A stretch of 64,000 nucleotides of DNA, taken from contig JBBTSA010000010.1 of NCBI GenBank assembly GCA_038064895.1, forward strand, positions 31,725 to 95,724. Reading direction: 5' to 3'. Made by a program: the position numbers and the translations under genes. Below the pieces are notes generated by a model. The model was not told the origin of the DNA. It did no database searches and saw only the letters and a list, made by a program, of their open reading frames with translations. This document shows positions 4,353 through 9,671 of this stretch, in pieces. The DNA is from Patescibacteria group bacterium (GTDB taxonomy: Bacteria; Patescibacteriota; Microgenomatia; Daviesbacterales; UBA10151). Within the stretch, counting starts at the first letter, position 1. Every line of letters begins with the position of its first letter.

Positions 4353-7300
4353 CTATCTATGAGATTTTCTGTAGAGGTAATATCCGGCTCCAAGTAACCC
4401 TATGCCTAATAGGACTACTAAAAACAGATTGTTGTCTCGTGGTGCTATTTTATAATCAACCGGCTCCGGGCTAACAAAATCTCCTTCACGTTCAGCACTC
4501 TCAGATGCTTCTTCTGTAGAAATTGTTGCCTCTTCATCAGCTGCATAAACATCTTTTGCCCCGAGTACCCCGCTTAAAGTTTCTACAACCGATGTGGCAA
4601 TCCCTAAAACCGCACCGCTACCTGCTTTTGCTGAAAGCTCATTTGAAGAATCTCCCGTAGCACAGTTGTTGGCTGCTCTTACTTTGAAGTAATAAGTTAC
4701 TCCAGGCTCCAACCCGTTAATTACAAAGCTTGTCACATTCCCGGTATTTGACACTCCGAATGTATATTTACCGGGAGCAGGACCATACTCTATTATATAG
4801 TGGGTTAGGGGATCTTTTGCCTTATCCCAAGTTAAAGTGATCTGACCCTTCCCTGTTGATTTAGCAGAAAGCAATACCGGAATACTTCCAGGTTTACTAT
4901 CGCCACAAATAGGCGCACCTGCGGTTGAGGGACCGCCAACTCCTCCGCCGACAGCCGGTTGAGAAGCAGCTGTGGTAATGCTGAATTCGGATGAAACCGC
5001 TTCGGGAGAACCAGCAGAAACAACTCTATAGAAATATGTAGTTTGAGGAGTAAGTACGGTCAACGTGACACTATGGTTGGTAACTTTTGGAGATGTATCA
5101 AACGTATCGGTTGAGTTAGCATATCCATAATTTGGAGCAGAATCCAAAGTTGGGTGGGAAGTAGTATCATAAATTACTCTTGAAGATGTTGGGTCGTCCG
5201 TAGTCCAGTTAATCACTACCCCATTTGGGCTTATAGAGCCTGTGCTTACACTGCTTTGAGGAATAAAAGTTGCAATATCTACAATTTGGTCAAAAACCGT
5301 AATATTTCCGGCATTATCCAAAGCAGTAATCCGTAAAGTATAAGTATTTAGCACCAAAGGATTGGTATCCCAAACAGCAGTAAAAGGTAAGGATGTTAAG
5401 ATGGCAATATCATGGAACGAATCTAGCCCGTCATTTCTCTTATAAGAAAATACAACTTGAGCAACTCCATTGGTATCTGATACAACAGCCTCAAGCGTTA
5501 CATTTCCGGAAACAGTTGAACCGGCAAGAGGTGTGGTAAAACTTATTGAAGGCCCTATGCTATCCCAAGTTAGGGTAAAAGATGAGGAGTTTATGTTGCC
5601 GACGTTATCAGAAATTGTCAGCTGTATAACATATACACCATCCAAATCAGCAGAAACTGTTGTATTTAATGCATTCGGAGTGCCGAAAGTTATGATTCCA
5701 GGTCCTGAAACTTGAGACCAAACAGTTGAGGCTACCCCTGATAATAAATCAGAAGCTGTGCCTGTTTGAGTAAACTGTGTTTTTTGAACTTGATTTAATC
5801 CCGCATCTGCTGTCGGAGGGGTTGTATCAATCATTACTTGATTTACTGCGGATTTTGTATCTTCCTGATTTCCTGATAAATCAATTGAATAAAACTTAAT
5901 TGTATAGATACCTTCGGCACTTAATGTAAAGCTTGAGGAGGTACCATTAACAACTACCCTTGTTGGGGAATTTGTCGGATCAGACCCATCAGTTGTATAA
6001 ACTATCTGCATGCAGCCGCTTAAATTATCAGTGCAGGCTAAAGTTACTGTTACGGGATCTTTATGCCATAAATTATCAGTTCCAACATCTGTTGTTGTCG
6101 GTTTTTCAATGTCAACTGCAACTTGGGATGTAGATTCATTGCTCTCATTACCTGCTGCATCAACTGATTTTACAAAAAAGTCCCAGATGCCTTGTGTTAA
6201 ATTTGTAACAGCAGATGTCACATCCGGGGCAACTATACCCGAAGGCCCGGCTACTGCTCCCAACATAGTCCTCCAAAGATATTGAACAACTCCTGATGTA
6301 GCATCGCTTGAGGCAATCCAATTCCAAGTTTGAGAAGTGGAGCCTGTTGGAGTAGTAGTAACAGGTACTCCGGGATCAGATGGATTGACTCTGTCTACCA
6401 TATAAGTACCGGTAAATGTAGATTGTCTACCTGAAACATCTGTTATTAAGAGATTTAGGATGTGAGTACCATCGCCCGGAAAAGTTGAGGCCAAATCAGT
6501 CCCTGATATAACTTCGACAGATGGAGCGCTATCCCAGCCATAAAGTATGGAAGCTACATCAGAACCCGGCAGGACATCAGTACCGGTAACTGTGATAGAG
6601 GGCAAAGTGTTTTGCCATAAGGCAGATGATCCGGTTACTGAAACTGTTGGGTCCAAAGTGTCCAGTCTATATGTTGCGGAATATGTGGACTGGTTACCTG
6701 CTAAATCCTCAACATAGATATTAAGCGTATGGACTCCGTCTGAAGGAACAGCTGTTGTGGCGCCGTTTGTAAAAAGTGTTCCTGAAGTTGCATCTGCTGT
6801 ACTATCCCAACTATATCTTGCAAAATTTACTCCTGATAAAACATCAGATATTGAGAGAGTAATTGTAGGATTCGATTGGAACCATCCTGAAATAACATTA
6901 TCGGATGAAGCAGTCGGACTTGCAGTATCCCAAACTAACGTAAAGGTTGAAGTTGTAGAATTTCCTGCATTATCTGTAATTGTTAATCTAATAACATAAA
7001 TTCCATCTTGGTCTGCTGAAATTGTTGTTGTAATGGAAGATGATGAACCAAAAGTTATATTTCCAGGTCCGGAAACTTTTGACCAAACATTTGATGCTAT
7101 ACCGGAGGAAGGATCCGGATCAGAAGCTGTACCGGTTTGTGTAAATAAAGTATTTGCTGTTTTATCAGACCCCGAAGATACGATAGGACTTGCAGTATCC
7201 CAAATCATTGTAAAATCTGAACTGGAAGAATTTCCAGCATTATCTGTAACTGTTAATCTAATTACATACTCTCCATCTGTATCAGCTGAAATTGTTGTTG

Positions 7301-9530
7301 AAAGATCATTAACATTTCCAAATGTAATGGTTTCGGGACCTGAAAGTTTGGACCATGTTGTAGTTGCAACGCCGGATGTTATATCAGATGCGGTACCTGT
7401 TTGGGTAAATTGAGAATTGGTTACAACATCCAATCCTGCTGAAACATCAGGTTGGGTTGTATCCCAAATCAGGGTGAATTCAGCAAAAGAAGAATTGCCG
7501 GCATTATCCAAAACAGTTAGTCTTAAAACATAAGTCCCATCCAAGTCAGCACTAATATCTGTAGTAAGAGAGTCGGAATTACTAAAGGTAATAATGCCCG
7601 TTCCGGAAACCTTAGACCAGGTAGTGGATGCTACTGCAGAAGATGGAGCAGGATCGTTTACTGTAGCGGTTTTTGAAAATTCGGTGTTTGTTGTTATATT
7701 GGACCCAACATTCACGGTTGCGGGAAAAGTATCCCAAGTTAAGTTGAATGTTTGGGATGCACTGTTGCCTGCGCTATCTGCAACAGTTAATCTTAAAACG
7801 TAAACTCCATCAGCTGATGCTGAAATTGTGGTAGTTAAAGCATTTGCGCTCCCAAATGTAATATCCCCGGGGCCTGAATCTTTAGACCAAGTGATGGTGC
7901 CAATTCCTGAAGATGGAGCTGGATCAGATACAGTCCCTGTTTGGCTAAATACTCCGTTTCTAACCTGATTTGATCCTGCTGAAACAGTTGGTGTAACAGT
8001 ATCTTTGGTGGAAGAAGTTGTGGCAGCTAAAGAGTTGTTTCCGGCTGTATCTTTCACTGTAATGGTTAAAATTAAGCTGCCGTCTGCCAAAGATGAAATG
8101 TTTATTCCGCTGATAGTAAATACGCCCGATCCTGGAATAGAAATTGTACCTGAAACAGATAAACTGCCATCAGCAACAGTCCAATTTGCAGCACCCCCTG
8201 CTTCACCGCTGCCTGAAATAGAAATATTTGTTTGGTTTCCCTGATTAATAGGATTAGTTATTGTTAGATTTGAGGCTTGAGCAGGGGCTACAGTATCTTT
8301 AAAAGCAGAAGCTGTGGTATTTGCAGATGAATAGCTACCGGAGGTCAAATTGACAGTTAAAGTCAAAGGCCCGTCAGGTAAGCTTGAAACATTTATACCG
8401 GTTATGTTGATTGTGCCGGTTCCTGATACAGTCCCTGTGCCGGAAACTGATCCAGAAGTACCGGCTATTGTATAGTTTACCGTAGCATTAGCGGCACCTG
8501 TTCCTGAAATCGTAACATTTGTTTGATTTCCGCTGTTAACCGGATTTGTTAGTGAAACGGCTGGGGTAGCAATAGAAATAGAAGTTGTAATGCCTGTGAT
8601 AATCACAGGAGTTGTTTCTAAAATAAAAGCGGTTACAGACGGATTGCCGGAACCTATAAATGTAAGCTGCTTATTTACATGAACCGTTTCGTTGTAAGGG
8701 GATCCTGTTGAACCGACATTTATTGTATCTCCGTTGGCTGCCGTATTAACAGCTGCCTGGATTGTTGTAAAACAGGTTGTGGGGGGATTCGTACCAACAA
8801 TTACGTTATCACAGTCGGCTTGTGTATTGGGATTCACTACCACAAAAACAGTAAAATGATCTAAATCATGAATTGTAAACGTACCATCACCATTATTTGT
8901 TATATTTTGAGTAACTTGTGTACCCGGGGATAAATCGTTTACAGAGGAAGCATATAGAACTTTAAAATTCGTTGTTCCCGCAGGAACAGGAAGAGTAAGA
9001 TTATACTTAAAAGTCCCGTTTGGCATTGACGATGTAATTTCATAAACACTGTTTGAAAGTGCTCCCAAATCAGCTACTTGAGATTCAGACAGACTTCCCT
9101 GTGATATGTTTAAATTCCCTGCTGCGCCGGAAATAGAAATAAATTTAACTCTTACTTCGTTGTTTGGATTTGCGTAAGTAACATTTATTGAAACAAGTTC
9201 TACAGTCGGTTGATTTGGTGCGGGTGAAAGAGTTAGTGTGGGTGAAGGATCTGCAGATGGTAACAGATTAGGCGTTGTACTGGGGGAAACGGAGGGCTCC
9301 GGGCTAGGACTGGGTTCTGGTGTAGGAGATGGAACGGGACCGGGAGAGGTTGAAAGCTCCGGACTGGATACAGTTGGCTCAGGACTTGCAGACGATGGGA
9401 CTAGAGCAGGCAGTTGGGCTGATGCACTTGCCTGCGGTGAGGGTGATGGAGTTTCCTCCGCAAGGACTGTTTTACCACATACAAAGCTAATTAGTACTAA
9501 AAGCAGTAGTATAAAAATTTTTTTAAACAT
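4353..9530 (-). CDS. Giant (1725 aa) secreted cell-surface protein. It has a signal peptide, a Pro/Ser/Glu-rich linker, Ig-like domains, at least 5 PKD-like repeats, FN3-like C-terminal domains, and a C-terminal TM helix with a basic tail. Function is probably adhesin or surface-layer-like.
   Basis: Signal peptide MFKKIFILLLLVLISFVCGKTVLA, then (S/P/E)-rich low-complexity linker. Repeats of about 100 aa have the pattern Dxx.P....G......F.QTGTxSD..SG....WSKVSGPG.ITFG......T.ISAD.DG.YV.RLT..DNAGN...FTL.WDT, which resembles PKD. C-terminal ...YYFKVRAANN (FN3-like), then LFLVVLLGIGLLGAGYYLYRKSHR (TM plus basic tail). Confidence 0.8.
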   Translation of the reverse strand: MFKKIFILLLLVLISFVCGKTVLAEETPSPSPQASASAQLPALVPSSASPEPTVSSPELSTSPGPVPSPTPEPSPSPEPSVSPSTTPNLLPSADPSPTLTLSPAPNQPTVELVSINVTYANPNNEVRVKFISISGAAGNLNISQGSLSESQVADLGALSNSVYEITSSMPNGTFKYNLTLPVPAGTTNFKVLYASSVNDLSPGTQVTQNITNNGDGTFTIHDLDHFTVFVVVNPNTQADCDNVIVGTNPPTTCFTTIQAAVNTAANGDTINVGSTGSPYNETVHVNKQLTFIGSGNPSVTAFILETTPVIITGITTSISIATPAVSLTNPVNSGNQTNVTISGTGAANATVNYTIAGTSGSVSGTGTVSGTGTINITGINVSSLPDGPLTLTVNLTSGSYSSANTTASAFKDTVAPAQASNLTITNPINQGNQTNISISGSGEAGGAANWTVADGSLSVSGTISIPGSGVFTISGINISSLADGSLILTITVKDTAGNNSLAATTSSTKDTVTPTVSAGSNQVRNGVFSQTGTVSDPAPSSGIGTITWSKDSGPGDITFGSANALTTTISASADGVYVLRLTVADSAGNSASQTFNLTWDTFPATVNVGSNITTNTEFSKTATVNDPAPSSAVASTTWSKVSGTGIITFSNSDSLTTDISADLDGTYVLRLTVLDNAGNSSFAEFTLIWDTTQPDVSAGLDVVTNSQFTQTGTASDITSGVATTTWSKLSGPETITFGNVNDLSTTISADTDGEYVIRLTVTDNAGNSSSSDFTMIWDTASPIVSSGSDKTANTLFTQTGTASDPDPSSGIASNVWSKVSGPGNITFGSSSSITTTISADQDGIYVIRLTITDNAGNSTTSTFTLVWDTASPTASSDNVISGWFQSNPTITLSISDVLSGVNFARYSWDSTADATSGTLFTNGATTAVPSDGVHTLNIYVEDLAGNQSTYSATYRLDTLDPTVSVTGSSALWQNTLPSITVTGTDVLPGSDVASILYGWDSAPSVEVISGTDLASTFPGDGTHILNLLITDVSGRQSTFTGTYMVDRVNPSDPGVPVTTTPTGSTSQTWNWIASSDATSGVVQYLWRTMLGAVAGPSGIVAPDVTSAVTNLTQGIWDFFVKSVDAAGNESNESTSQVAVDIEKPTTTDVGTDNLWHKDPVTVTLACTDNLSGCMQIVYTTDGSDPTNSPTRVVVNGTSSSFTLSAEGIYTIKFYSIDLSGNQEDTKSAVNQVMIDTTPPTADAGLNQVQKTQFTQTGTASDLLSGVASTVWSQVSGPGIITFGTPNALNTTVSADLDGVYVIQLTISDNVGNINSSSFTLTWDSIGPSISFTTPLAGSTVSGNVTLEAVVSDTNGVAQVVFSYKRNDGLDSFHDIAILTSLPFTAVWDTNPLVLNTYTLRITALDNAGNITVFDQIVDIATFIPQSSVSTGSISPNGVVINWTTDDPTSSRVIYDTTSHPTLDSAPNYGYANSTDTFDTSPKVTNHSVTLTVLTPQTTYFYRVVSAGSPEAVSSEFSITTAASQPAVGGGVGGPSTAGAPICGDSKPGSIPVLLSAKSTGKGQITLTWDKAKDPLTHYIIEYGPAPGKYTFGVSNTGNVTSFVINGLEPGVTYYFKVRAANNCATGDSSNELSAKAGSGAVLGIATSVVETLSGVLGAKDVYAADEEATISTEEASESAEREGDFVSPEPVDYKIAPRDNNLFLVVLLGIGLLGAGYYLYRKSHR
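6650..7950 (-). repeat. In-gene tandem DNA repeats of about 270-300 bp encoding consecutive PKD-like domains. A fifth, separated copy lies near 5500-5800.
   Basis: Plus-strand shadow ORFs at 6757-6999, 7033-7413 and 7594-7803 all end in the same motif (FPALSVxVNLIT), about 270 or 540 bp apart. The minus-strand protein shows four back-to-back homologous units of about 100 aa. Confidence 0.6.
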
Positions 9531-9671
9531 TTTTATGGGACAGGTCTTGGGGGCAGAAATGGGTAGGCTAGAGGCAGAAAAAATCTAGTAGTTGCGAATA
9601 CTATAACGTTTTAATTGAAATGTCAATACTTCAACTTCGCTCAGTATTGACCCTGAGTAGAATCGAATGGG

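Follow-up and report, generated by a model that had tools for sequence, protein, structure and literature searches.

The CPR bacteria, or Patescibacteria, account for much of bacterial diversity, and the majority are believed to be attached to other cells. To our knowledge, hardly any molecules of their cell-cell interface are known beyond type IV pili. The longest open reading frame in the 64,000-nucleotide stretch of Patescibacteria DNA analyzed here (the window) encodes a giant protein, which raises the question of how such a protein is built and what it might do at the cell surface. An earlier reading made from the sequence alone (the sequence-only reading) had described it as a PKD-repeat surface protein on a Pro/Ser-rich stalk and a candidate for host attachment. 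Considering its sequence together with a structural model of one domain, we propose that it is an adhesin-like rod anchored at its C-terminus, from a Daviesbacteria-like CPR bacterium, and probably has an autoproteolytic tip, a reading to which we assign a probability of about 0.55. Host attachment by the protein is a generic inference, and episymbiosis of the lineage is assumed.

The gene product and its two ends

The gene occupies positions 4353-9530 of the minus strand as 1725 codons plus a stop, and forms a single intact ORF whose reading frame is unbroken across 5178 bp. It is the largest of the window, as previously stated, the runner-up encoding 1283 aa. A sigma-70-like promoter candidate (TTGACA-17-TAGTAT; 9598-9626, minus strand) lies ~68 nt upstream of the ATG; it is a consensus match only, and is a weak candidate because promoter-like sites in the region were not above shuffle expectation. 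A scan for terminators was equally uninformative. The encoded protein, of 171 kDa, contains only two hydrophobic segments, residues 1-24 and 1702-1720. The first has the hydropathy and make-up of a signal peptide (MFKK / IFILLLLVLISFVCG / KTVLA|EE; 9459-9530, minus strand), with KK in the n-region, an h-region of 15 residues and a VLA|EE site, so that cleavage is predicted to occur after VLA. A lipoprotein signal was rejected, because the context of Cys18 (SFVC) is unlike a lipobox and the Cys is absent from the orthologues. An uncleaved signal-anchor, which would make the protein a two-ended tether, is disfavoured by the short N-terminal h-regions of the family (median 12 residues vs 17 for the C-terminal TM) and by the AxA-like cleavage site found in 50 of 69 members; if the N-terminus did stay anchored, the cleavage geometry discussed below would change.

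By hydropathy, the second segment is the single C-terminal TM helix that had been proposed, LFLVVLLGIGLLGAGYYLY, followed by a cytoplasmic RKSHR tail (4356-4427, minus strand). The orthologues have in common the anchor pattern G..L.AG..YY and a basic tail. No LPXTG-like motif was present in the last 120 residues, where a single PEP stands 15 residues ahead of the TM helix, and LPXTG occurred in only 1 of 117 family members. The NCBIfam sorting-signal models, including the CTERM types, did not match the protein, and no sortase gene was found within the window; sorting by sortase (LPXTG), PEP-CTERM or another such system was therefore rejected. Together, these features support a secreted type-I membrane protein, anchored at its C-terminus and displaying a predicted multi-module β-sandwich body at the surface.

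By composition, residues 25-108 (9207-9458, minus strand) form a low-complexity Pro/Ser/Thr-rich tail of 84 aa, with 25 Pro, 20 Ser and 9 Thr among the 86 residues at 25-110. The Pro/Ser-rich stretch of the sequence-only reading thus exists, but it cannot be a membrane-joining stalk, because it and the TM anchor are at different ends of the protein, with ~1600 residues between the stretch and the helix. The true stalk position is taken by a poorly conserved, acidic, Ser/Glu/Ala-rich membrane-proximal spacer (residues 1641-1701; 4428-4610, minus strand). A Pro/Ser/Thr-rich tail occurs throughout the family (median 110 aa, 58% P/S/T/A/E/Q), and its sequence is weakly conserved, at 26-51% identity among orthologues.

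A modular rod with diverged PKD repeats

The middle of the protein begins with two Big_6/Big_13 Ig-like modules (residues 326-517; 7980-8555; Pfam), which are 42-67% identical among orthologues, and continues with four contiguous K319L-like PKD modules (518-874; 6909-7979). These are followed by four OmpL47-type/Big_13/CHB_HEX_C_1-like β-sandwich modules (875-1240; 5811-6908; Pfam per segment), a fifth PKD module (1241-1329; 5544-5810; Pfam), a Big_7 Ig-like module (1330-1422; 5265-5543; PF17957, E 8.7e-13) and two FN3-type modules with a Gly-rich hinge (4611-5264; Pur_ac_phosph_N-like at 1423-1525 and fn3 at 1546-1640), all on the minus strand. The five PKD modules matched Pfam PF22352 (E 1e-41), and the OmpL47-type block, which contains Cys1166/Cys1173, matched NCBIfam NF047446 in four stretches (125 bits; cut-off 40). 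Cys1542/Cys1623 in the FN3 region are invariant. The Ig-like and FN3-like modules and the four-plus-one arrangement of the PKD repeats had been anticipated, and most of the anatomy read from the sequence, from signal peptide to TM helix, was recovered. Pfam and NCBIfam recognised no enzymatic family in the protein. With a signal peptide, tandem β-sandwich modules and a surface anchor, the protein has the architecture of the multi-module Ig-like/PKD/FN3 adhesins. If extended, the rod of about 15 β-sandwich modules would be ~50-65 nm long.

The PKD units had also been taken for near-identical DNA repeats ~270 bp apart that would be prone to repeat-number variation. The spacing was confirmed (264-270 bp), but near-identity was not: local identity was 62-82%, whole units were 55-67% identical in DNA and 44-62% in protein, the longest exact word common to any two of them was 8-19 nt, and Tandem Repeats Finder detected no tandem array in the gene. 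The PKD repeats are old and diverged, and for these reasons slippage and assembly collapse are unlikely; the earlier expectation of an unstable or collapsed repeat array was misleading. A phase-variable or contingency antigen resizing its PKD array by recombination, or an assembly artefact of the repeats, would account for five related units at regular spacing and for a PKD number that varies among orthologues (10, 6, 3, 1, 1, 0...). Besides the divergence of the units, however, the intact frame and the comparable length and synteny of the orthologues speak against this explanation, to which we give almost no credence. The differences between orthologues represent variation over an evolutionary time-scale. 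The metagenome scan yielded no close relative for a strain-level comparison of copy number, and the protein itself was absent from a collection of 5.8 billion proteins, where the best match reached 44%.

The head domain, its H-F-T motif and its family

The most informative part of the protein, absent from the sequence-only reading, is the family-defining head with the β-helix stub that follows it. Structural modelling of residues 109-234 (8829-9206, minus strand) gave a β-sandwich of the ZU5/GAIN_B type. Pfam models for ZU5 (PF00791), GPS (PF01825) and GAIN did not match (E<=10 for 22 head sequences, E<=1 for the query), solved GAIN/ZU5 chains gave no sequence match, and a profile search of PDB sequences returned only β-helix proteins, which correspond to the second module. 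This module (residues 235-325; 8556-8828, minus strand) is a truncated right-handed β-helix with invariant Cys240/Cys253, of which ~90 residues match residues 43-118 of the 366 of PDB 4pmh, that is, the N-terminal cap and first rungs. Some relatives have a complete β-helix. Because the segment is only a 90-residue stub, an enzymatic role of the pectin-lyase-fold kind was rejected.

The modelled head fold, combined with an invariant H-F-T motif, suggests a self-cleaving, break-away tip. H225-F226-T227 (8850-8858, minus strand) is a candidate autoproteolysis site with a predicted cut at F226|T227; it sits in the last β-turn, between strands 113-119 and 124-128 of the model, and is followed by a buried strand, VFVVV. 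In an alignment of 160 homologues with a median identity to the query of 40%, every sequence kept the H and the T, and no other position was strictly invariant; the P1 residue was F in 151, M in 6 and L in 3. The best fold matches of the head were the ZU5 domains of ankyrin and UNC5B, which bind without cleaving, and the protein could accordingly be an ordinary non-cleaving adhesin, with a ZU5-like binding module at its end, a structural role for H-F-T and a covalently intact rod. Such an adhesin would not by itself explain why H and T alone are invariant at this level of divergence, why P1 is limited to F/M/L, as in the catalytic HX(S/T) pattern, or why the motif falls exactly in the last turn. 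Moreover, the cleaving domains of CD97 (GAIN), CARD8 and NLRP1 (FIIND) were also among the top fold matches. We consider a non-cleaving adhesin rather unlikely.

A word-index homology search had little sensitivity for the head, returning 3, then 12 short or fragmentary proteins, and an exhaustive HMMER search was needed to delimit the family. The HMMER search recovered at least 560 cluster representatives at 50% identity, almost all from Patescibacteria MAGs, the nearest syntenic relatives being Daviesbacteria-type genomes. Four Saccharibacteria loci (L009, L022, L032 and L045) are among those that encode the head. The head starts at median residue 139 and the median protein length is 1613 aa; 97 of 117 members have an N-terminal signal-like segment, 68 of the 117 a strong C-terminal hydrophobic segment, and the order signal peptide - P/S tail - head - modules - TM is kept across the family. 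An anonymous PKD repeat protein can thus be placed in a large family that is lineage-wide and recognisable from sequence, and whose head would be useful as a marker and Pfam-type model for annotation of the CPR surface proteome. A phage origin of the head was unsupported, viral contigs yielding three weak partial matches.

The orthologues, of 1433-2302 aa, lie in conserved synteny. The three closest genomes (L001, L002 and L003, all Daviesbacteria) share the order PolX-giant-LemA-HtpX-GatCA(B), which none of 40 other family loci shows; an operon-level functional tie to LemA/HtpX/GatCA was accordingly dismissed as a property of the family at large. Identity among orthologues depended on the part of the protein, ranging over 51-63% in the head, 44-79% in the β-helix stub, 50-70% in the FN3 modules and 16-61% in the PKD and OmpL47 blocks; in this mosaic middle, the blocks in common differ from orthologue to orthologue. 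The neighbouring housekeeping genes of L001 are 75-86% identical, vs ~45% for the giant protein (39% in the best local alignment).

The gene is single-copy and syntenic in related genomes, which would also fit an archaeal-like S-layer or envelope-scaffold glycoprotein, an abundant acidic Ig-like array with a glycosylated Pro/Ser/Thr tail and sequons. The protein is indeed very acidic (pI 4.05), consists of Thr and Ser to 28%, and contains 40 N-x-S/T sequons where 29 +/- 4.3 were expected; PMT_2 and GT4 glycosyltransferase genes are located within the window, and the C-terminal TM anchor is likewise compatible with this role. By contrast, neither SLH nor another known S-layer domain was found with Pfam and NCBIfam, and a mosaic middle whose module number differs between close relatives is hard to square with a conserved lattice. 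An S-layer function is therefore quite improbable.

A proposed break-away tip compared with known systems

In the anchored and probably self-cleaving rod that we favour, the TM helix would sit in the cell membrane and lead, through the acidic spacer and the modules, to a distal two-module head bearing the Pro/Ser/Thr tail. T227, activated by H225, would attack the F226 carbonyl, and an N-to-O acyl shift would be followed by hydrolysis. The resulting N-terminal fragment would comprise residues 25-226 (the tail and most of the sandwich), and the C-terminal fragment residues 227-1725 (the strand TVFVVV, the rod and the anchor); the two would remain together non-covalently, like adhesion-GPCR GAIN and bacterial MAIN domains. 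Speculatively, the tip might bind a partner surface, e.g. a host cell, through the surface of the sandwich, through the tail, which may be glycosylated, or through both. A pulling force might then part the fragments at the tip, and such a mechanical fuse would allow the tiny cell to come away with its membrane anchor intact. The variable middle would set the reach and evolve fast. The head, however, is conserved and not variable, unlike a fast-evolving host-recognition tip, which counts against this view of the tip.

A wider proposal, possible but doubtful, is that giants whose distal tip bears a self-cleaving GAIN/ZU5-like domain, one that had not been annotated before, occur Patescibacteria-wide and serve force-sensitive break-away or unmasking in episymbiont-host contact. 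Cleavage at H-F|T would leave a tip capped non-covalently by the mucin-like tail and the sandwich body; removal of this cap under tension would free the cell, or uncover the hydrophobic strand TVFVVV on the outer end of the rod (~60 nm). The family comes with a hypothesis, self-cleavage at F226|T227, that can be tested at the bench. If true, the recently described microbial GAIN-like (MAIN) mechanism would extend to CPR bacteria and would be seen in a second geometry, in which the protein breaks at its tip and not at its base.

Cleavage occurs at HL|T in the GPS of adhesion-GPCR GAIN domains and at HF|S in the ZU5 domain of PIDD, and also in the FIIND of NLRP1 and CARD8. Sequence similarity between these eukaryotic domains and the query head is undetectable, and the head lacks their GAIN_A helical subdomain, GPS disulfides and 7TM or death-fold partner. 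As an analogy only, MUC1-type SEA mucins resemble the query in combining a Pro/Ser/Thr stretch, a β-turn domain that is self-cleaving (in the query, putatively) and a proposed breaking point, and one TM anchor; they differ in that the SEA fold is unrelated to ZU5/GAIN, and in that the query has a 15-module rod between cleavage domain and membrane.

Closer parallels are found in bacteria. MAIN domains, e.g. those of B. subtilis YfkN and the S. agalactiae IgA-Fc receptor, have an HFS motif that is cut between F and S, with Ser and Thr interchangeable, and their fragments stay associated (Brogan & Rudner, bioRxiv 2026, 10.64898/2026.05.12.724683). MAIN proteins, like the query, are large, secreted and surface-anchored (average ~158 kDa) and carry Ig-like/FN3/PKD-type adhesion modules, and MAIN resembles the query head as a GAIN_B/ZU5-like sandwich with H-hydrophobic-S/T in the turn that leads into the final strand, a likeness of model fold and motif. 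The nucleophile is always Thr in the head family whereas it is Ser in most MAIN domains, and the anchor is a TM helix in the query but sortase or SLH in MAIN proteins. The published order, signal peptide - adhesion/enzyme domains - MAIN - anchor, places MAIN just before the anchor in nearly all cases, whereas the query head is N-terminal, right behind the signal peptide and Pro/Ser-rich tail and ~1470 residues from the anchor. Because of this reversed order, cleavage would free only ~200 residues, and any benefit of doing so is conjecture. The RefSeq-based MAIN survey makes no mention of Patescibacteria (10.64898/2026.05.12.724683).

N-terminal ZU5 autopeptidases were predicted in 2012 in RHS/polymorphic toxins and large bacterial surface proteins (Zhang et al., PMC3482391). 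These resemble the query in being very large secreted proteins with a ZU5-like domain at the N-terminus, and in having a computationally predicted self-cleavage close to that end. The query, by contrast, has a C-terminal TM anchor and no SpvB, β-propeller, RHS or toxin modules, and its head escapes Pfam ZU5 and GPS, whereas the domains of Zhang et al. were detected by sequence profiles. Within the CPR, large surface proteins have been proposed as host-attachment factors, e.g. in Vampirococcus lugosii, in work that defined neither an N-terminal head family nor an autoproteolytic motif (PMC8080830). Compared by description, the V. lugosii giants are, like the query, large predicted membrane proteins with PKD and FN3 modules encoded by a reduced CPR genome.

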